DNA of 64,000 bases from an uncultured Chloroflexia bacterium. Lineage in GTDB: Bacteria > Chloroflexota > Anaerolineae > JAAYZQ01. The position numbers and the translations under genes are program-made. Below the pieces are notes generated by a model. That model had not been told where the DNA came from, searched no databases, and saw only the letters and a program-made list of their open reading frames with translations. The DNA lies in the NCBI GenBank assembly GCA_963700285.1, contig CAVOXA010000001.1:672001-736000 (forward strand), written 5' to 3'. Shown here piece after piece: positions 16,042 to 25,613 of the stretch. Position 1 is the first letter of the stretch; the number at the start of each line of letters is the position of its first letter.

Positions 16042-16548
16042 TTAGATGCCTGTGATCTCGCTGCGGCGTTCCATCAGGATGACATCGCGCCAAACGCCAT
16101 GCATTTGGCCAATTCGGTGTCGACGCCCTACGAGTCGAAATCCACAGGTCATGTGCAGGGCGATGCTCGCCACGTTTTCGGGAAAGATCCCGGCCTGGAG
16201 CGTCCAAATGCCCTCGCGTTCCGAAGCCCGGATAAGGTTCTGTAGCAAGAGTGTACCCAAGCCCTGGCATCTCGCCGCCTCGGCCACATAGACGCTGACC
16301 TCGGCAACACCGCCATACACGCATCTGGTGGAGACACCGCTTAATGCCGCCCAGCCGGCGACCTCTCCTCCAGTCCTAGCCACCAGCCTGCAGGCTCGTA
16401 AGTGACTGCGGTCCCACTCTTTCCAATGAGGTACGTCAGTTTCAAAAGTGGCATGGCCGGTAGCGATGCCTTCCTTGTAGATGGCCTTGATCGCGTGCCA
16501 ATCCTCAACCCTCAACTCTGCAATGGTGACGCCCATGGTACTCCCCAT
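16042..16548 (-). CDS. GNAT N-acetyltransferase (Pat/MnaT/ArsN-like)
   Basis: IYKEGI..ATFET, EVSVYV, GLGTLL, FPENVASIALH, WRDV. Confidence 0.9.
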   Translation of the reverse strand: MGSTMGVTIAELRVEDWHAIKAIYKEGIATGHATFETDVPHWKEWDRSHLRACRLVARTGGEVAGWAALSGVSTRCVYGGVAEVSVYVAEAARCQGLGTLLLQNLIRASEREGIWTLQAGIFPENVASIALHMTCGFRLVGRRHRIGQMHGVWRDVILMERRSEITGI

Positions 16549-16580: not shown

Positions 16581-17075
16581 TCAGGCCCGAATACCGTACT
16601 CGGCCAGCGAATCATCCAGGAATCGCTGCCATACCGCGTTTGGATGCCAGATCCGGAGCAGATCCTTTTCGGCCGTTTCTTGGGACACGCCGAGCCAGAT
16701 GACGCGGTAGAGGTAGACGAAAACCGAGACCCGCATATTCATGACACAATGGACAAACACTCGCTTGCCACGGCACCTGGCCATCACGTCGAAGAACTGC
16801 TCAAGGTTCTGCGCCGTGGGGCGCTCCCATAGGACAGGGATGTGGACGTAGAGCATTCCCGCCCCGGCAACAAGCCGCTGCTCGTTGGGCAGCGCGTTGG
16901 AGGAATCGGGCATGGCCAGGTTCACGACGATGTCATAGCCTGCCGCTCTAACGTCGGCAAACTGGGAAGGTGCGGGCTGTCCCGCCGTGCCAATCGTATC
17001 TGAAATGGCGAGATAGTTGAGCACGTCCTCCAAGTCTGGTGATGGCATTGGCTGCCTCCTATCTTGATCCTCCAT
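16581..17075 (-). CDS. Tyrosine-phosphatase-like protein (DUF442/BLH-like)
   Basis: TAGQP, VVNL, YVHIPV, HCVMNMRVS (Cx5R-like loop). Confidence 0.8.
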   Translation of the reverse strand: MEDQDRRQPMPSPDLEDVLNYLAISDTIGTAGQPAPSQFADVRAAGYDIVVNLAMPDSSNALPNEQRLVAGAGMLYVHIPVLWERPTAQNLEQFFDVMARCRGKRVFVHCVMNMRVSVFVYLYRVIWLGVSQETAEKDLLRIWHPNAVWQRFLDDSLAEYGIRA

Positions 17076-19398
17076 CCTTCCACAGGCCGTCCCGTAGCTG
17101 CACGCCGAAGCGAGCTAGGCTTTCCTTCGCCTCCGCCAGCCTGTCTGTTGGGACGACGGCCAGCGTACGATGGGCCGCCGGGAAGGGGGTGAGAAGCTGC
17201 TGCAGGTCGGCATTCTCTCGCAACTCATCCAGGGCGCCCGGATCGCTGAATTCGATGAGTGAAAGGGTTTCCACTGCGGCATTGCCATAGTAGCCGCCCC
17301 AGGCTTTGACTTGATCGACAAGGCCCCCGGGCAGCGTCCCCCGGTGCAGTTTGCCCAATTCGTCCAGTAGGCGGGTCGCTTTGATTTTGTTCCCTGCGGC
17401 GCGGCGCACGGACCTGGGACTTAGCTTCCACATACCATCAGGCGTCTCTTTGGCCAGCCTCGAGAGCCTGCCGCGTAGATGCAGGCTGGGGCAAGCGTGG
17501 ATGGGGCGGATCGTTCCATCTTCCTCAACGATGACGCTGTCATCCGCCGACTCTGGCTCGGCGCCGGTGACTGCTGGAAACAGTCCCTGGCCAACCAGTT
17601 GCGCTATCAGCGCTTCCTCGCCACCCGCCTTGAGCAGCGCCACTTGTTTTGACAGCCTGCGGGCCATGTGCTTGCTTAGCTGAGGATCAGCCACCAGTCT
17701 GCCGAGCAGATCGCCATCGACCGCCTGAAGAAGGCTGACGCCGGTACGGAACACGATCCGTTCGTGCTGTGCGCCCCACTCTTTCAGAGATCGCAGCACG
17801 TTCTGCGGCAGAGTTGCGCCGATTTTCTGCTCCAAAAAGTGGAGTATTTGTGTCGTCTCCATGCCCAATTGTTGGGCGCGGTAGACTGAATCCCGCGACA
17901 GGCGGTATTCAAAGGCGCCCCGGTCAGCCTGCTCTCTGTCGGCGAACGAGTCCAGGCGTGCCAGCCATTCCAGGGGGACCGGACCAATGGCTATCACCTG
18001 GAAGTTGGGCTGGAGCACCAGCCTGCCCGTGCCCTCCTCAGGAAGGGCAGCCGGGGTTCGTGCTTCTGTGGCAGACAGTACTTCCTTGCCTGCCCGAGTC
18101 AAGCGAAATGCCTGCCACTGGCCCAGGTGGTAGCCTAGGTCGACGAGGCCAAGTTGGTGCAGAACCCCGGTGACCGCGCTTTCTACAAAACTCTTCTCAA
18201 AGCCGTTGAGCTTTCGGATCAACTCCTGGGTCGAGCCATAGTAGTAGGAACCGCTGTGACCATAATACCAGTTGCCTCGGTACGTCTCAAGATTGAGGCG
18301 ATTGGCAAACAAGAAATCTGGGTCCTGGTCTTGGATCGTCTCTAGGATATTATCCAATTCGTGCCAGACGCCAGGTGGCTGCGGCCGGAGGCAGGCCAGC
18401 AGGCTTTCCTTCGCGTGGCGGGGGCGGGGGTCATAGTCAGCCGCCCCTCTTAACCAAGGTTCTGCCACGCCAAGCTGTGACCACGCATCCAGACAGGCGG
18501 CCAACTGCCTGGATAGCGACCAACTCCAGTAAGGAGGTACTCCTACAGGGTCCTCATCGGCTGGACGTAACTGGCCCTCTTGTCTGCGTACCAGATCCAA
18601 TTTCTCCAGGAGCAAGCGGAGCAGGTACAGCCGACCGGTCTCGTCCTCGCGCTTGGCGTCGTCCACTAGAGGATCGGGCAGCAGCAGAGTCTGGTTGATC
18701 GCCTTGAGCCAGCGTTTGCCTACGAGACCACCTTTGAGTAGGGACACCTCGTGACGCCGTACAAAGTCCCAGTAAAGGTACAGGTCCCGCAGCAACAGGG
18801 CCGCATCGCCGCTCTGTACCTCAGTCGGGTGCCAGTCGGGTGCCTGCGGTGGAATCGGCTCCGGCTGCGGCAAGGTCTTTCGGATGATTTCGGGTATATG
18901 CAGCGTTTTGCCGGGATGGAATTGGAGTTTGTAGGACGTGCCGCTGCTGGAAAAGGACTCTTCCCGGCTGAAGACCAGGCCGCGATAGGTCAGCCGGGCA
19001 ATCACATCTTCAAACACGCGCGAGTCCCCACGATAAGGCTGTCCTGCGTATCCTTCTGCATAGGGCACGCGAAGATAGCTACGGCCATGGCTCTCAGTTC
19101 GAGGTGCAGTAGCCGCTAACCCTGCCCGGATCACCTCGCGCTTCAAAGTCCTCGTCGAGATCGTGCCGCCGTGTAACAGCAACCGATCGAGGACGGCCCG
19201 CTCGCGCTCGTCGAGCCGGTCGAGGGAGTCCCGGATCCGCTCCTCGGCAAAGTACTCAGCCTGCATCTTGGAGAGGACCTCTGATTTTGACAGCTTTTTC
19301 CCTTTTGGGTCTGTGACCCGCAAGCCGGCGGCGTCCGCCATCTCCCACAACGTGGTAGAGTGGTACGCATCAAGAAGGGTCCGGATCTCGTCGGCCAT
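17059..19398 (-). CDS. XPB-associated protein with two Helicase_C_3 (XPB-NTD-like) modules
   Basis: LVLQPNFQV...YRLSRDSV...LPQNVLRSLKEW, and a second copy VIVEEDGTI...WKLSPRSV...LVDQVKAW. Confidence 0.8.
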   Translation of the reverse strand: MADEIRTLLDAYHSTTLWEMADAAGLRVTDPKGKKLSKSEVLSKMQAEYFAEERIRDSLDRLDERERAVLDRLLLHGGTISTRTLKREVIRAGLAATAPRTESHGRSYLRVPYAEGYAGQPYRGDSRVFEDVIARLTYRGLVFSREESFSSSGTSYKLQFHPGKTLHIPEIIRKTLPQPEPIPPQAPDWHPTEVQSGDAALLLRDLYLYWDFVRRHEVSLLKGGLVGKRWLKAINQTLLLPDPLVDDAKREDETGRLYLLRLLLEKLDLVRRQEGQLRPADEDPVGVPPYWSWSLSRQLAACLDAWSQLGVAEPWLRGAADYDPRPRHAKESLLACLRPQPPGVWHELDNILETIQDQDPDFLFANRLNLETYRGNWYYGHSGSYYYGSTQELIRKLNGFEKSFVESAVTGVLHQLGLVDLGYHLGQWQAFRLTRAGKEVLSATEARTPAALPEEGTGRLVLQPNFQVIAIGPVPLEWLARLDSFADREQADRGAFEYRLSRDSVYRAQQLGMETTQILHFLEQKIGATLPQNVLRSLKEWGAQHERIVFRTGVSLLQAVDGDLLGRLVADPQLSKHMARRLSKQVALLKAGGEEALIAQLVGQGLFPAVTGAEPESADDSVIVEEDGTIRPIHACPSLHLRGRLSRLAKETPDGMWKLSPRSVRRAAGNKIKATRLLDELGKLHRGTLPGGLVDQVKAWGGYYGNAAVETLSLIEFSDPGALDELRENADLQQLLTPFPAAHRTLAVVPTDRLAEAKESLARFGVQLRDGLWKDGGSR

Positions 19399-19399
19399 G

Positions 19400-21739
19400 T
19401 CACACCTGGTCGGTCTGCTTGGGAGTGTAGCCGGCCTTTTCCAGCTCGGCCCGCAGAGGATCCACGGCATGAGGGCTGATGATTACCAGCCGGGGCGACA
19501 TTTCGGCGATCAGGTACTTGTCCAGCGACGTTACCGCCTTCGCCTCAGCCAGGGCATAGTCATCGCCGAACTCGATCACCGTAAGGCCTTTGTAGATGCG
19601 AACCTGACCGTAGGCCTGCCACCATGACGCTAGTTGGCTGCGGATGGCGTCGGGCATCGGAACCTGTAGGAATTGCTCCCAGCCATCCAGGATCTCGGAC
19701 AGGGCGGTGCCACTCTCGAAGGCTTCGTAGGCGGCCTGGGCATCCAGCCGATACTCAAAGTAATCGGCTTCAGCGATCGTTAGGCGAGCGATCTTGTCCA
19801 GCAGGCTGTGAGCCTGGGCGCTAACAGCCGAGGGCCTAAGGGTGACACAGAGTCCGTCCGCATTTACCGCTCCAGCCCCTGGTACAGCCGGGACCTGATC
19901 GACAGCGTGCCGTGGTGGGGGAACGGACTCTGTACGATCCAGATACAGTTCGCCCAGGCCCTGAAGGCGAAAGGCTGCCAGTTCCCCGCCTTCGAAGAAA
20001 AGGTCGGCCAATCCCAGCCAGTGCAAGGGTCCAGCGATGATCTGCCGGACAAAGTTCCCCTGGGCCAGGTCCCAGTGTTGTACGTTGCCCTGAAGCAAGG
20101 GTTGCCCATCCCTGGTCAGCAACCAGGCGCCTGCGCGCTGGCGTTGGGGGATCGAATAGGCCCGATAGTAGGGATCCTGTACCGTCTGATCAAACCTGGG
20201 CCAGATGGTGCGCAGTAGCTGGAACAGGTCCTTCAGAGCCACCCATTCTCCGTCTGGCAGGGTAGCCAGCGTACGAAGGACCAGTTGGCGAAACTCGACC
20301 AGATCCTTCCCCAAATTCATGGGCTTGTAGTACAAGTAATGGCAGGTACGCACGAAGTGTAGGGGCTTAACCGTCCGCAGTACCTCCCACAGCGCGCTCC
20401 AGTTCCACATGGTCAGGTAGATCCGGGCCAGAAGGGCCCGCTGGGCCAGTTCATCTAGGCGCAGGAACTGGGCCTTCACCTCGGGCCAGACGGTCGTTGG
20501 GCTGCCGGGTTGAAACACGCCCGTCGCTGCCAATAGGGAAAAGACAAACTCCAGGCGTGCTTCCCCATCGTCTCGCCCGCACTCGGCTCCGGCGGCCAGG
20601 GGAGCCAGGCGTACGATTGCCTCGTCGGGCAGGGAACGCCCTGGTGGTGGGAGCGTGAGCGTCAAGTCCGCACGATTCCTGATCTGCCCGCTCTTTTGCA
20701 TCTGCGCGAGTTCGACCGGGTCATAGTCCCACCCCTCTAGATCGGGGAGAAACCGTTCCAGGCGGGGGCGGGGCATGGGCGGCCGCAAGCGTACAGGCTG
20801 TTGCTCCAGCAAGACCGCGATCTGGTTGGTGGTACGGACCAGGGCGTAAGGATCAGCCAGGCAAAGTCCTGTCCCGGCAGACTCTGTAGGCAGATTGGTC
20901 GTCATCTCCCCTAATAGGGGGGGGAAATGGCGGACAAGGGCAAAGGGAATGAAATCCTCCTTGTCGCCATACGCATCTCTGGCATAGCCGGGCAGCGCCA
21001 AGCCCGTTTCCCACAGATGGCGCGTAAAGGTGGGGGCCACCTTGTGGTTCCCAGGCGCTCTCCATGCTCTGGCTATTTCCTCCAGGTCTTCGGCTCGTAC
21101 CCCAAAGCTCCCACTCAGGAGGAGCATTGCCCGGAGCATCAGCCGATGTTCCTCAGGCAGGTCCTGGATGGCCTGGGCGATCTCTTCAGGGTTGACAATG
21201 TACTTGGCAACCTGCTGTATAATATCCGCCTTGCGCGTCCCCTTCAGCCGCCAACCCCGGTTCTTGGCCATCCGACGCAGATCCTGAAGCTTTACCTGGG
21301 AGAGCCATGCTTCCAACTGCTCTTGATAGACGCGCTGGCGCTCTTCCCAGGACACTGCAATCCAGCTGGGTGTTTCTTCAGGACGATAGGTGGGTAGGGG
21401 ATCAACTGCTGTGACTTCGATAGGGTATTCTTTGGAAAGGGGCACAGCACCTTTCGGAACAAACTCCTCCGGCGTCGATATCCACTTGAGCAGGACTGCG
21501 CCCACGTGCTTGCAGTAGCCGCTCCAATCATAGGGGCAGGTGCAACGTGCGTCAATGCCGCCCGCCCCGACCTCGATTTCCACTTCGTACAGTCGGCTAC
21601 CGCGCACCAGGGCAGTGAGGGTCTGGCCCACACGCACCGGATTCCGAACCCGGGCTACGTAGCCTTGGGCCCGGCGCAGGCTCTTGGCGTTCAGTGGACC
21701 GCGAATGTCGGCCTCTCTGAGAGTTTCCAAAGTAGGCAA
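19400..21739 (-). CDS. SWIM zinc finger + SAP/HeH-like + Helicase_C_3 domain protein
   Basis: CTCPY..YCKH (SWIM); LQDLRRMAKNRGWRLKGTRKADII; C-terminal YRLDAQA...MPDAIRSQLASW. Confidence 0.8.
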   Translation of the reverse strand: MPTLETLREADIRGPLNAKSLRRAQGYVARVRNPVRVGQTLTALVRGSRLYEVEIEVGAGGIDARCTCPYDWSGYCKHVGAVLLKWISTPEEFVPKGAVPLSKEYPIEVTAVDPLPTYRPEETPSWIAVSWEERQRVYQEQLEAWLSQVKLQDLRRMAKNRGWRLKGTRKADIIQQVAKYIVNPEEIAQAIQDLPEEHRLMLRAMLLLSGSFGVRAEDLEEIARAWRAPGNHKVAPTFTRHLWETGLALPGYARDAYGDKEDFIPFALVRHFPPLLGEMTTNLPTESAGTGLCLADPYALVRTTNQIAVLLEQQPVRLRPPMPRPRLERFLPDLEGWDYDPVELAQMQKSGQIRNRADLTLTLPPPGRSLPDEAIVRLAPLAAGAECGRDDGEARLEFVFSLLAATGVFQPGSPTTVWPEVKAQFLRLDELAQRALLARIYLTMWNWSALWEVLRTVKPLHFVRTCHYLYYKPMNLGKDLVEFRQLVLRTLATLPDGEWVALKDLFQLLRTIWPRFDQTVQDPYYRAYSIPQRQRAGAWLLTRDGQPLLQGNVQHWDLAQGNFVRQIIAGPLHWLGLADLFFEGGELAAFRLQGLGELYLDRTESVPPPRHAVDQVPAVPGAGAVNADGLCVTLRPSAVSAQAHSLLDKIARLTIAEADYFEYRLDAQAAYEAFESGTALSEILDGWEQFLQVPMPDAIRSQLASWWQAYGQVRIYKGLTVIEFGDDYALAEAKAVTSLDKYLIAEMSPRLVIISPHAVDPLRAELEKAGYTPKQTDQV

Positions 21740-21743
21740 GGTA

Positions 21744-23546
21744 CTACACTCCGCCTGTCGTGAGCCTGGGATGTGGATCAGTTGCGAAAGACTCGGACTC
21801 GACTAGCTCGCCTGCAATCGTCGCTGGTTCATAGTCCGCCACCTCGTCGTCGTAGAGGATGGTGTAGCGGTAGCCCTGTTCGGTGAGAAAGAGCTGGCGA
21901 TTGGCGCTATAGTCCTGGTCGATGGTAGTCCTTGCTGACCAGCGTGTAAAAGTGGGCCAGCAACCCATTGTGCTTGGGGCGCAAGATGCGGCCCAGACGC
22001 TGAGCCTCCTCCTGGCGGCTGCCAAAGGTCCCGCTGATCTGGATCATGACGCTGGCATCGGGCAAGGTCAATGGCGAAATTTCCTACTTTGGAGACGATC
22101 AACCGGCTCAAAGTTCCCTCTCGAAACTCCTGATAGAGCTTGCGCCGCTCAATCACTGCCGTCTTGCCGGTGATGACCGGATATCCGTACTTTTCGGCCA
22201 CTTGCTGGAGTTGTTCCAGGTACATGCCGATGATGAGCACCTGGTCGTCCGGATGCTTGGCCAACAGCTGGTCCAACACCTCGAATTTGCGCGGGTTCTC
22301 AGCGGCGACCCGGTACTTTTGCCTCGGCTCGGCCAGGGCATAGTCCATCCGTAGTTCGGGGGACATCGGGATGCGGATCTCAGTCACCTCGGCGGTGGCG
22401 ATCCAGCCCTGTTTCTCCAGGTCTTTCCAGGGCACATCGTACTTCTTTGGGACCGATGAGCGAGAACACGTCGGTCTCCCGGCCATCCTCCCGTACCAGC
22501 GTGGCCGTCAGCCCCAGACGGCGGCGCGCTTGGAGTTCGGCCGTGATGCGAAAGACAGGGGCGGGCAGCAGATGCACCTCATCGTAGATGATCAGGCCCC
22601 AGTCCCGCTCGTTAAAGAGCCCAAAGTGGGGGAACTGCTCAAGCAGAGGTACGCCAGGTTTCTGTGTGCCGCGCTTGCGGTAGGTCATCGTCTGGTAGGT
22701 CGAGATGGTCACCGGCCGGATCTCCTTGCGATGACCCGTATATTCGCCGATCTGATCCTCGGTCAGCATTGTTTTGTCCAGCAGTTCGTCGATCCACTGT
22801 CGCACGGCGACAGTGTTGGGTGAGAGGATCAGGGTGTTGCACTGCATTTGCTCCATGGCCGCCATGCCGACCATCGTCTTGCCCGCCCCGCAGGGGAGCA
22901 CGATCGACGCCCGAGCCGCCCTGGGCTGCGCCATCAGCATAGTAGATTTCGGCTGCTTCCTGCTGGTAGGCTCGCAGCGCAAAGGGTACTCGGCGCCAGA
23001 CGATATCGGTCGCAGGCGGATCTCCAGCCCTTCGCCATCTACATAGCCAACCAGGTCCTCGGCCGGGTAGCCGATTTCGACCAGGGCATGTTTGATGTGG
23101 CCCCGCTGGGCCGGATCCACGCGCAAGGTGAAAGCATCGATGGGGGCCAGGATGTAGGGGGCGAGGCGCTTGTGCCGGGCCAGTTCGGTGACAATCAGCC
23201 TCCTCATCAGAGACAAGTACCAGATCGCCATCCTGCCGCATCAGCTTGACCCGGCCATAGCGCGAGATATAGTCGACAATGTCGACCCGTACGTTGCCGG
23301 GGACAGGGTATTTGCTGTATCGCTCCAACCCCTCCAGGATGGCCTGTCCGCGGCCAGCCCGGCAGATGCCGCGTTCCAGAGCGAGAGCGGCGTGATCCGA
23401 TAGGTGTGAACGTATTCGGGGCTTTTTTCCAGTTCCGCAAAGCGAGCCAGCACGTCTCGCGCATTCTGATAGAGGTCGTTGTCGACCTCCAGCAGGACGC
23501 TCTTGTCTCCCTGGACGATAAGTGGATTCTCTGGATTATAGGTCAT
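21744..23546 (-). CDS. xpb: DNA repair helicase XPB (Ssl2/Rad25 family), split by ~7 frameshifts
   Basis: Motifs spread over several frames: [80 protein letters not shown]. Confidence 0.92.
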
Positions 23547-23700
23547 GTTGAAAAGTCACTGGCAAAAAGGCTGACTTGTAATCATAGCGCAAAACCGGGC
23601 CGGTGGCAAATGTGCTTGTCCACGAATCTGAAGGCTGTAACAGGGGCGCGTGGTTGGGGCAGGACTCGTGTCGTCATCCGGGCCATCGAGGGAAAGGGAA

Positions 23701-23729
23701 TTGACGCTTGGGCTTATGCGGACTATACT
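23701..23729 (+). promoter_or_regulatory. sigma70-type promoter of the RNB gene
   Basis: TTGACG-17bp-TATACT. Confidence 0.6.
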
Positions 23730-23792
23730 GGCCTTGGTCTGTCTGTATCCCAGGGCAGAGGATCATATTCTACCCACGGAGTCACGTCCTCT

Positions 23793-25613
23793 ATGCCAGA
23801 ATTGATGCCCCGCCAGGATAGCCTTGTACTGTACAAAACGCGCCCGGCTCGAGTCATACGTGCCGGAAAAAAGCTCGAGATCGAGTTGGGTGGGGGTGAG
23901 ACGCTAAAGGTCCGCCTCAAAGACGTTGAGGTATTGCACCCGGGTCCGATGGGCGATCTAGACCAACTTCAGCCGCAAACGGGAGAGGTAGAGACGGCCT
24001 GGGAGCTACTGGCCGGGGCCAAGACTGATCTGGCCGAGCTGGCTGAGCTGGCCTTCGGCGACTATACTCCGGCCAGTGCCTGGGCGGCCTGGCAACTGGT
24101 GGCCGAAGGACTTTTTTTCCACGGAAGTCCTGGAGCGATCGTGGCCCATTCACCGGAGGATGTGGCCCGCGAGCAGGCGGCCCGACAGGCCCGGGAGGCG
24201 GAGGAGCAGGCATGGCAGGGATTCCTCACTCGATTGCGCACCAGAAACGTCGGGCCCGAGGACGGACGCTACCTGAGGGAAGTGGAGGAAATCGCCCTCA
24301 AGCAGAGGGCCAAGAGTCGCGTGCTGCGGGAGTTGGGGCGCGCCGAAAGCCCAGAGGTAGCCCACGCTCTCTTGCTCGAGGTGGGCTACTGGGAGGTTAC
24401 AAGAGATCCCTACCCCCGGCGGCTTGGCCTGCCCGAGTCTGTGGTATCTCTGGAACTCCCAGATCTCGCCAAAGAAGACCGGGTCGATCTGGCCCATCTG
24501 CCAGCCTTTGCCATCGACGATGAGGGCAACCAGGAGCCGGATGACGCGCTGAGCTTGGAGGGGGACCGCCTGTGGGTTCACGTGGCCGACGTGGCGGCCC
24601 TGGTAGGCCCTGGCAGTGAGATTGATCTGGAAGCCCGGGCTCGAGGGGCGACTCTGTACCTGCCTGAGAAGACAGTACCCATGTTGCCCATGCAGGCCAT
24701 CGAGACTTTGGGGCTCGGCTTGGCAAAAGTATCCCCGGCCCTGTCCATCGGCCTGGATCTGAGTTCCAGGGGTGAAATCGGTTCCGTCGAGGTAGTGCGA
24801 AGCTGGGTCCAGGTCACACGTCTGTCCTACCGTGAGGCCGACAGCCGGCTGGACGAGGAACCCCTGAAAAGCCTGCACTCCCTGGCGCAAAGGAACGAGG
24901 CGCGGCGGTTGAAGCAGGGTGCCATAGCTCTCAACCTTCCCGAGGTCAAGGTGCAGGTCGAGGGGGAGGCTGTGAGCATCCACCCCCTGCCCCCACTCAG
25001 GAGTCGGGATCTGGTGACGGAGGCGATGCTTCTGGCGGGAGAGGCCATCGCCCAGTTTGCAGCAGAGAGGGCTATCCCCATCCCGTACGTTACGCAAGAT
25101 CCACCGTATTCCGACGAAAGGCCTCAGGACCTCGCCGGGATGTACGCACTGCGGCGCGCCTTCAGACCCAGCCAGCCCAGTACGGTGCCCGGGCACCACG
25201 CCGGGTTGGGCCTGGAAACCTATGTCCAGGCCACCAGCCCTCTGAGGCGCTACCTGGATCTGGTTGTACACCAGCAGTTGCGGGCCTATCTGCGGCACGA
25301 AAGGCTGCTGGACGCCCAGGAGATCCTGGAGCGGGTGGGAGCAACTGCGGCAGTGGCTGGCAGCGTGCGTCAAGCCGAGCGGCTGGCCAGGCGGCATTGG
25401 ACACTGGTCTACCTGATGCAGCGGCCAGGCTGGCGCGGGGAAGGGATCCTGGTAGAGCAGCGTGGTTCCCAGGGCACGGTACTCATCACCCAGCTAGATC
25501 TTGATGCCCAGGTACACTTGCGCCAGGACCTGCCTCTGAACAGCCCCGTCGATCTGGTTCTGGCCGAGGTCAAGCTGGCGGAGCTTGCAGCCCACTTTCA
25601 GGTCGTGCGCTGA
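23793..25613 (+). CDS. RNB-domain ribonuclease (RNase II/R family)
   Basis: AIDDEGNQEPDDALS, VHVADV, RGATLYLP, LVTEAM, HAGLG, TSPLRRYLDL. Confidence 0.92.
   Translation: MPELMPRQDSLVLYKTRPARVIRAGKKLEIELGGGETLKVRLKDVEVLHPGPMGDLDQLQPQTGEVETAWELLAGAKTDLAELAELAFGDYTPASAWAAWQLVAEGLFFHGSPGAIVAHSPEDVAREQAARQAREAEEQAWQGFLTRLRTRNVGPEDGRYLREVEEIALKQRAKSRVLRELGRAESPEVAHALLLEVGYWEVTRDPYPRRLGLPESVVSLELPDLAKEDRVDLAHLPAFAIDDEGNQEPDDALSLEGDRLWVHVADVAALVGPGSEIDLEARARGATLYLPEKTVPMLPMQAIETLGLGLAKVSPALSIGLDLSSRGEIGSVEVVRSWVQVTRLSYREADSRLDEEPLKSLHSLAQRNEARRLKQGAIALNLPEVKVQVEGEAVSIHPLPPLRSRDLVTEAMLLAGEAIAQFAAERAIPIPYVTQDPPYSDERPQDLAGMYALRRAFRPSQPSTVPGHHAGLGLETYVQATSPLRRYLDLVVHQQLRAYLRHERLLDAQEILERVGATAAVAGSVRQAERLARRHWTLVYLMQRPGWRGEGILVEQRGSQGTVLITQLDLDAQVHLRQDLPLNSPVDLVLAEVKLAELAAHFQVVR

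Follow-up and report, generated by a model that had tools for sequence, protein, structure and literature searches.

An xpb operon of Chloroflexota encoding two paralogous p52-like proteins, a likely bacterial version of the XPB motor module of TFIIH

The window (the whole stretch of 64,000 nucleotides of Chloroflexota DNA analysed here) contains an operon in which the gene for the DNA translocase XPB is followed by genes for two large proteins, termed partners A and B, that resemble the TFIIH subunit p52. A and B are full-length paralogues. We read the operon as XPB together with two p52-like proteins that probably assemble with it into a trimer, likely steadying the motor and bringing it to damaged or stalled DNA, and place the probability of this reading at about 0.55. 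Such a trimer is likely to hold XPB, target DNA and work in DNA-damage processing, and it is likely that bacteria have their own version of the TFIIH XPB motor module. Both a physical XPB–A–B complex and the activation of XPB would be expected from homology and gene context.

All three genes lie on the minus strand in the order xpb, B, A. The first (21744–23546) encodes an SF2 DNA translocase with an NTD of clutch fold, a DRD-like domain and two RecA domains. Partner B (19400–21739, 779 aa) comprises a SWIM region, a SAP-like helix pair, a winged-helix body, one clutch and one p8-like domain, while partner A (17059–19398, 779 aa) comprises a helix pair, three winged helices and two modules of clutch plus small domain. 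Between the end of the xpb stop codon (21744) and the TTG start of B (21739) there are 4 bp, and a single base pair separates the end of the B stop codon (19400) from the ATG start of A (19398). The tight coupling described in an earlier note on this DNA is thus borne out. A candidate sigma-70-like promoter (TTGCCA-17-TATGAT, a consensus match only, at 10 of 12 positions) is located at 23581–23609 on the minus strand, 35 nt upstream of the xpb start, and both hexamers are retained in the close relative L001. No LexA-type box (GAAC-N4-GTTC) was found in any of 44 regions upstream of xpb, nor was there a palindrome common to these regions. Four short contigs of a metatranscriptome run fall on the region; they do not show transcription.

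The XPB is a member of the known bacterial family. The intact orthologue of L001, 91% identical in DNA to the gene of the window, scores 849 bits on NF045503 (cut-off 610) and so belongs to this equivalog. Orthologues share 53–82% identity (25 compared), with the Walker A, DEVH, RED and motif VI sequences invariant in all 25. The NTD and these motifs are present in the window, and Pfam PF13625 matches the XPB N-terminus. As assembled, however, the gene is divided into six reading-frame pieces with no single open frame, broken by seven insertions of 1–2 nt near 23342, 23198, 22993, 22906, 22447, 22064 and 21927. These are probably assembly errors, because short-read contigs from close relatives lack every one of them, and some of these contigs differ by 0–3 substitutions over 150–260 bases. 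A true pseudogene is unlikely; all seven indels are insertions that the relatives' contigs lack, and second codon positions differ from those of L001 by 1.5% in xpb (7.8% in B and 6.9% in A). To exclude a private, recent inactivation in the source organism would take the source reads.

The three genes are inherited together. Among 201 genomes of the host's class XPB is found in 66 and an A-type gene in 60 (62 matches less two of solo type), and none of these 60 A-type genes occurs in a genome without XPB. In 52 of the 60, A is within 6 kb downstream of XPB. The genome-search count for B (36/201 at E 1e-25) misses divergent copies and includes SWIM-only matches, so that B was assessed from fetched loci. 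It lies between XPB and A in all 20 loci that carry both; seven further loci have B and A adjacent in unchanged order with no xpb alongside in the fetched stretch, and one more B–A locus is truncated by the contig start. The synteny anticipated for relatives is supported. By family the distribution of XPB is near all-or-none (7/7, 6/6 and 7/7 against 0/7, 0/7 and 0/6), and in the window's own family the module is present in one of six other genomes. The neighbours of the operon are for the most part housekeeping genes, with neither a repair nor a transcription gene as a conserved neighbour in the loci compared. PF13625 matches without an XPB match occur in 116 of the 201 genomes, and the three inspected contain a solo p52-like paralogue. 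Its retention without the motor indicates that the p52-like fold can work without XPB.

The operon is built around a repeated module, a clutch (the XPB-NTD fold) followed by a small alpha/beta domain, present once in XPB, once in B and twice in A. Four copies had been proposed from the sequence, and profile comparison agrees: with diverse alignments all six pairs of clutch units match at 97.7–98.5% probability. Narrower alignments give 64–97%, and 12 cross-domain controls give at most 0.2%. The small domains of A (both copies) and B match one another at 92–98% and the XPB DRD at 52–69%. The paralogy of the partners extends well beyond the module, residues 3–612 of A aligning with 140–777 of B at 99.5%. 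Mean-field coupling analysis of 279 A sequences (Meff 238) recovers hairpin contacts within the first clutch, with inter-module pairs not above noise. Matches in the ESM Atlas are only clusters of 'hypothetical protein' carrying PF13625.

Partner A begins its main body with three winged-helix domains (residues 51–180, 198–284 and 309–445; 18064–19248, minus strand) that are collinear with those of p52. They are followed by module 1 (residues 456–612; 17563–18033, minus strand), with a p52-type clutch bearing a QPNF motif, and module 2 (residues 618–772; 17083–17547, minus strand), with an XPB-type clutch, each with its small domain. PF13625 matches A in two stretches (97.4 bits). In the predicted model residues 184–547 superpose on 133–400 of human p52 (Z 14.4, rmsd 7.2, 243 aligned), and residues 44–603 on 18–507 of yeast Tfb2 (Z 13.0, rmsd 24). 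Module 1 superposes on the NTD and DRD of XPB (Z 14.8, rmsd 3.3, 153 aligned), and its profile matches Tfb2 (6trs) at E 2e-4. For module 2, a diverse A profile matches the NTD and DRD of human XPB at E 6e-5. Winged-helix domains form the middle of both partners, a feature overlooked in the earlier, sequence-only reading.

Partner B carries at its N-terminus (residues 3–100; 21440–21733, minus strand) the SWIM zinc finger that had been noticed in one partner. The region scores above the Pfam SWIM cut-off (20.9 bits against 19.6), its predicted model superposes on ZSWIM8 (Z 12.8, rmsd 2.0, 96 aligned), and the CxC-xn-CxH ligands C66, C68, C76 and H78 are invariant across 120 B homologues. The SAP/HeH-like pair claimed for both partners has weak support. 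An N-terminal helix pair is visible in the predicted models of both, but at E up to 0.05 Pfam SAP matches just 11 of the 59 B-type proteins, with a best E of 5.6e-4, and one of the 64 A-type proteins. The clutch of B (residues 616–712; 19604–19894, minus strand) superposes as a predicted model on the XPB NTD (6ro4_A; Z 12.0, rmsd 2.1, 92 aligned), a diverse B profile matches XPB/Ssl2 at E 0.002, and PF13625 matches residues 636–745 (39.2 bits, cut-off 34.2). The chain ends with a small alpha/beta domain (residues 713–777; 19409–19603, minus strand) like Tfb5/p8 and the C-terminal domain of p52. This is the best-conserved part of B; in 59 diverse B proteins D726 is invariant, and G711, R714, E723 and E732 are at least 90% conserved. 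The resemblance to p8/Tfb5 proposed earlier is seen on superposition, 55 of the 58 residues 713–770 aligning with Tfb5 (3dom_B) at rmsd 2.2 and Z 6.1, a middling Z that is common among small folds. A related fold is also found in the XPB DRD. Natural deletions in B appear to preserve the parts that would be used in docking. Five genomes encode a mini-B of about 305 aa with SWIM, clutch and small domain only, the zinc ligands being retained, and four other loci have a B without SWIM yet with clutch and small domain.

Over most of their length the predicted structures of A and B match p52/Tfb2, in support of the earlier proposal of two p52-like subunits. Using Foldseek, p52/Tfb2 chains fill the top 11 rows for A (best E 3e-9) and the top 17 for B (best E 9e-9), and when 48,161 chains are searched without bias, XPB and p52 are the only matches to A at Z of at least 8. 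The succession of winged helices, clutch and C-terminal domain is collinear with p52 in the predicted models (Foldseek, VIA-align). The case for p52 is stronger than that originally made, because the likeness extends past the clutch into the winged-helix body. Superposed on p52 over the whole chain, the partners give rmsd values of 7–26 Å and TM-scores no higher than 0.40; the likeness is thus one of individual domains. A falls below the gathering score of the Tfb2 family PF03849 (19.3 bits against 34.5) and B has no match; 33 of 64 A homologues match PF03849 at E up to 0.05 (best 7e-7), with hits in module 1 that stay below the cut-off. The p8 family PF06331 matches neither the genome nor any of the controls. 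No paper describing a bacterial p52 homologue was found among titles and the starts of abstracts, in which subscription journals are thinly covered.

The clutch of p52 and the NTD of XPB form a pseudo-symmetric dimer (PMC6422496), and the ATPase of XPB is both stimulated and limited by p52/p8 (PMC13024598). By analogy, the NTD of the bacterial XPB would dock on the clutch of one partner through a sheet-to-sheet contact of the kind made with p52 in TFIIH; A module 1, with the only p52-type clutch of the operon, is the likeliest site. The other clutches, in A module 2 and in B, would then pair, as would the p8-like small domains, tying B to A, and these pairs could cradle the second RecA domain of XPB in place of the p52-CTD/p8 dimer, dispensing with a separate p8 gene. 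Docking and cradling would set the ATPase and translocation rate, while the SAP-like, winged-helix and SWIM parts may bind nucleic acid or other proteins and select the substrate. A nuclease domain was not detected in any product of the operon, A and B included; the module would therefore open or remodel DNA to the benefit of enzymes encoded elsewhere, for instance the Uvr system of the genome. We counted against this reading the missing LexA-type box, the lack of a conserved repair neighbour, the solo paralogue without XPB, the missed PF03849 cut-off, the high rmsd of the whole-chain superpositions and the middling Z of the p8 likeness.

The same trimer might instead serve transcription, its translocation on dsDNA opening promoters or acting on stalled RNA polymerase to push or release it, in the way that TFIIH serves Pol II. 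We regard this as rather unlikely, given that sigma-70 polymerase opens promoters without any ATP-driven step, that about two-thirds of the class has no detected module, and that no transcription gene is a conserved neighbour. It would nevertheless fit partners rich in winged helices, a candidate promoter that looks constitutive and has no SOS box, and the role of eukaryotic XPB as a promoter-opening translocase (PMC13024598). Loss of ercc3 also renders M. tuberculosis hypersusceptible to rifampin, which weighs against the repair reading in pointing at least as much to transcription, but the effect did not appear in a CRISPRi screen that the paper cites (PMC10534295).

Two other explanations were considered. 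A and B could form a DNA-binding heterodimer or regulator of their own that shares a pathway and an operon with XPB, with no stable complex, the clutches pairing among A, B and the solo paralogue. The B–A pairs apart from xpb in several lineages, the persistence of the solo paralogue, and the possibility that the two modules of A satisfy each other within the chain would all suit this. We consider it improbable; every A-type genome has XPB, the four clutches of the operon make two pairs only if the XPB NTD is included, and the p52 clutch, their homologue, serves as a dock dedicated to XPB (PMC6422496). An anti-phage or anti-plasmid helicase system is more improbable still. SF2 helicases and SWIM proteins do occur in defence systems, the distribution in the window's own family is patchy, and PADLOC gives partial matches, to PbeA for the helicase core and to PDC-S62 for the SWIM stretch. 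These matches span generic domains only, with none in A, and the operon has no effector or nuclease; near all-or-none presence by family, mostly housekeeping neighbours and the high conservation of XPB also argue against defence.

Work on bacterial XPB has so far treated the protein by itself, and a 2026 review still calls its role elusive (PMC13024598). Should A and B prove to be p52/p8-like partners of bacterial XPB, the regulators were missing from earlier assays. Function would then be testable with three soluble proteins, offering a prokaryotic model of the XPB–p52 interface, a site of mutation in human XP/TTD, and a way into the origin of TFIIH, with XPB-NTD/DRD, p52 clutch/CTD and p8 as copies of one module. 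More tentatively, as a possibility rather than an expectation, the XPB–p52–p8 lobe may be an ancient prokaryotic machine made from one repeated clutch and small-domain module. Its three-subunit Chloroflexota form would do the job of p8 with fused domains and, like TFIIH, link the opening of DNA to transcription or repair, and the near-universal solo paralogue would represent a second, XPB-independent role of p52, lost in eukaryotes or overlooked.

Compared with known systems, the operon represents the XPB–p52–p8 lobe only and not the TFIIH core, because genes for p44 and Bax1 were not found. The genome (89% complete) has no match to p44/Ssl1 (PF04056), its sole XPD/DinG-family (DEAD_2) match is on another contig, unlinked to xpb, and Bax1 (DUF790) is not detected although three archaeal controls are. 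The label 'TFIIH-core-like' given previously was thus overstated. With the eukaryotic lobe (XPB–p52–p8 or Ssl2–Tfb2–Tfb5; 6NMI, 8EBS–8EBU, 6TRS and 3DOM) the operon shares an XPB with NTD, DRD, RED motif and RecA pair, and partners in which winged helices, a clutch of XPB-NTD fold and a small alpha/beta domain at the C-terminus follow one another as in p52; the last domain of B resembles Tfb5. It differs in having two p52 paralogues where TFIIH has one, an XPB-NTD/DRD-like tail on A, a SWIM finger in B and an N-terminal helix pair in both, with no p44/Ssl1 gene or separate p8 gene found and no XPD match linked to xpb. Archaeal xpb is likewise coupled to a partner gene, but Bax1 is a nuclease that binds ThM/HD2 (PMC13024598), whereas no nuclease domain is detected in A or B. 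Bacterial XPB of the same equivalog (NF045503; M. tuberculosis Rv0861c/Ercc3, Kineococcus) has been characterised alone, unlike the XPB here with its two coupled p52-like genes, and a 2012 paper states that no bacterial homologues of p44 or p52 had been found (PMC3353954). One-partner bacterial xpb operons include three loci of the same phylum (L024, L025 and L045) in which a PF13625 partner gene abuts xpb as in the window; the partner of L024 and L025 has a WYL-like tail by eye, with no Pfam match. Actinobacterial xpb, described in the earlier note as flanked by a Helicase_C_3 gene, would also be a one-partner arrangement. In the three loci a single partner with one module lies upstream of xpb, while in the window both partners lie downstream and together contribute three modules, with no WYL.

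The operon lies on contig C1 of a genome of 7.05 Mb in 22 contigs (89% complete). The earlier note had claimed three tightly coupled minus-strand genes, and the coordinates agree. The first gene, xpb (21744–23546), has a putative promoter with a sigma-70-like site 35 nt upstream, and is followed by partner B (19400–21739) and partner A (17059–19398), each of 779 aa, with intergenic gaps of 4 bp (xpb/B) and 1 bp (B/A). The 3′ end of A is overlapped by 17 nt by a phosphatase/sulfur-transferase-like gene (16581–17075, minus strand), after which comes a GNAT acetyltransferase gene (16042–16548, minus strand) that resembles ArsN1/PAT below the cut-off. Both are conserved in L001, the locus of a close relative with an intact xpb, and absent from more distant loci. 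A divergent RNase II/RNB-family gene (23406–25613, plus strand) is located upstream of xpb, and L001 and L002 have one too.

The reading frame of xpb is broken in the window. Compared with the intact L001 gene (91% DNA identity) it contains seven insertions of 1–2 nt and no deletions, with a second-position divergence of 1.5%. All seven are missing from short-read contigs of close relatives (four runs); contigs of a fifth run also lack two of them, and for one of these two the contig shows no other difference. The intact orthologue scores above the XPB equivalog cut-off, and the motor motifs are all invariant across 25 orthologues. The breaks are very probably assembly errors. The frameshifting insertions are all located within xpb; B and A, together 4.7 kb, have none relative to L001.

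Each of the three proteins contains a module comprising a clutch, the fold common to the XPB NTD and p52, and a small α/β domain. Its fourfold recurrence, noticed earlier by eye, is real: Pfam PF13625 matches the N-terminus of XPB, B once and A twice, and each of the six pairings among the four clutch units scores 97.7–98.5% in profile comparison with diverse alignments. The small domains of the partners give 92–98% with each other and 52–69% with the XPB DRD, the small domain following the NTD. Narrower alignments lead to lower values (clutch units 64–97%, small domains 0.2–73%), where 12 cross-domain control pairs reach at most 0.2%. Pfam also places a SWIM finger in B and a sub-threshold Tfb2 match in A. 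The SAP/HeH pair proposed for both partners is plausible in B (a weak Pfam SAP match, 11 of 59 homologues) and barely so in A (1 of 64).

A and B are paralogous along their length, A 3–612 aligning with B 140–777 (99.5%). Both were modelled with AlphaFold2 at high confidence (mean pLDDT 85.7 for A and 90.4 for B). In a Foldseek search, the check suggested by the earlier note, the top-ranking chains are p52/Tfb2 for A (E = 3e-9) as well as for B (E = 9e-9), with XPB next. Among 48,161 chains the A model reaches Z ≥ 8 only for XPB (Z = 13.5) and p52 (Z = 11.9); lower matches mark three winged helices at 51–180, 198–284 and 309–445. In the models, A 184–547 superposes on human p52 133–400 (Z = 14.4, rmsd = 7.2, 243 residues) and A 456–610 on the XPB NTD and DRD (Z = 14.8, rmsd = 3.3, 153 residues). 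B 3–100 superposes on ZSWIM8 (Z = 12.8), B 617–711 on the XPB NTD (Z = 12.0), B 296–769 on p52 151–458 (Z = 10.6, rmsd = 7.8) and B 713–770 on Tfb5, the p8 protein (Z = 6.1, rmsd = 2.2, 55 of 58 aligned). Because the whole-chain rmsd is high, the likeness to p52 is domain by domain. Both proteins fall under the Pfam Tfb2 threshold, and are thus remote homologues rather than family members by score. By sequence profile A module 1 matches Tfb2, and the best match is XPB/Ssl2 for A module 2 (E = 6e-5) and for the B clutch (E = 0.002). With E-values this modest the typing is a lead, on which A may be a complete p52 with a fused XPB-NTD/DRD-like tail, and B a p52 body carrying a SWIM head.

The class is probably Anaerolineae, since most named relatives of the window's proteins are Chloroflexota, chiefly from Anaerolineae. 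Of 201 genomes searched in this class, 66 contain XPB, counting a fragment and two broken copies, and 62 have an A-type match. Two of the latter (G282 and G308) were excluded as solo types, i.e. single p52-like proteins outside the operon, with one module covered and ~560 aa. XPB is present in all 60 remaining genomes with A, and in 52 of these A lies ≤6 kb downstream of XPB on the same strand. No P value is attached to this co-inheritance because kin genomes are not independent. Six XPB genomes lack an A match, and the loci of five (all except G296) were inspected. A is in place but frameshifted in L059, and the contig is cut directly after xpb in L061; L057, L058 and L060 have either a contig edge or B adjoining XPB with A not located. 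Within 68 selected loci the order is XPB-B-A in 20, B-A without adjoining xpb in 8 and XPB-B in 5, and B never comes after A. The genes are syntenic in relatives.

Reduced forms also occur. In five genomes from a single family (L049–L053) the gene between xpb and A encodes a mini-B of ~305 aa, comprising only SWIM, clutch and small domain with the winged helices absent; some of these five also have a second B-A pair (L054). SWIM is lost in other lineages and the second module of A in L021 and L027, while the first module of A and of B is never lost in the lineages compared. Across the phylum PF13625 occurs in 49 of 151 genomes, including one-partner xpb operons (L024:2093–4405, L025:3638–6046 and L045:4168–6348) in which the partner is upstream and overlaps xpb. 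The partner tails of L024 and L025 are WYL-like by eye; Pfam gives no match. Second, divergent xpb copies (L062:5647–7341, L063:5860–7491 and L064:3519–5171; ~730 bits) have no adjacent p52-like gene, and two adjoin a Clp-family ATPase gene (labelled by eye).

PF13625 is found in 182 of the 201 genomes of the class, mostly as one match each, and 116 of the 201 have it with no XPB match (none at E = 1e-12, ≤6 candidates per genome scored). Solo p52-like proteins of 510–564 aa are present in the three XPB-less genomes inspected (L030–L032) and in the window's own genome, as its third p52-like gene (L029:6882–8576 on G000:C10, minus strand, 564 aa). Lone PF13625 matches of similar length recur throughout the class. 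The clutch of 13 solo-type proteins is closest to A module 1 in profile comparison. A p52-like protein can persist without XPB; this paralogue leaves the link of A and B to XPB unweakened, yet cautions against reading a partner from the fold. In other classes (L022, L028, L034, L035 and L039) a further p52-like gene repeatedly follows one metabolic gene, which we take to resemble ispH, with a tandem pair in L035.

The p52 clutch of human TFIIH has the same fold as the XPB NTD, with which it dimerises sheet to sheet, and RecA2 is cradled by the p52-CTD/p8 dimer (PMC6422496, available portion); the XPB ATPase is both stimulated and capped by p52/p8 (PMC13024598, in part). From homology and co-inheritance we infer an XPB-A-B trimer, with a probability of about three in four. 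The four clutches of the operon would form two pairs; the simplest arrangement would join XPB to A module 1 and B to A module 2.

Family precedent, rather than local evidence, favours a role in DNA-damage processing beside the genome's uvrB, which is intact on contig C13. A second, frameshifted UvrB-like gene lies at G000:C1:1310951–1312710. None of 44 upstream regions contains an SOS box, no nuclease or Bax1 was found linked to the operon, and the genetic hint on the role of bacterial XPB in the available part of PMC10534295 concerns rifampin sensitivity. Action of the trimer in transcription is less favoured than DNA-damage processing. A defence system is unlikely: PADLOC matches are confined to generic domains, and presence is near all-or-none at family level.

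In the portion of PMC3353954 available, p44 and p52 homologues are stated as not found in bacteria, and bacterial XPB as likely functioning without a TFIIH-like complex; that of PMC2587704 merely lists the helicase. A mostly title-level literature search found no paper describing a bacterial p52, and the database label for proteins like A and B is already 'helicase-associated domain-containing'. This analysis itself made the co-inheritance count, typed the modules, and recorded the shortened mini-B and the solo paralogue that is independent of XPB. The TFIIH-core-like complex proposed earlier does not hold as a core, because p44/Ssl1 was not found in the window's genome (89% complete) and its XPD/DinG-family gene is unlinked to xpb. 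The likeness that stands is to the XPB-p52-p8 lobe of TFIIH, and the predicted complex of the operon would work in the same manner.
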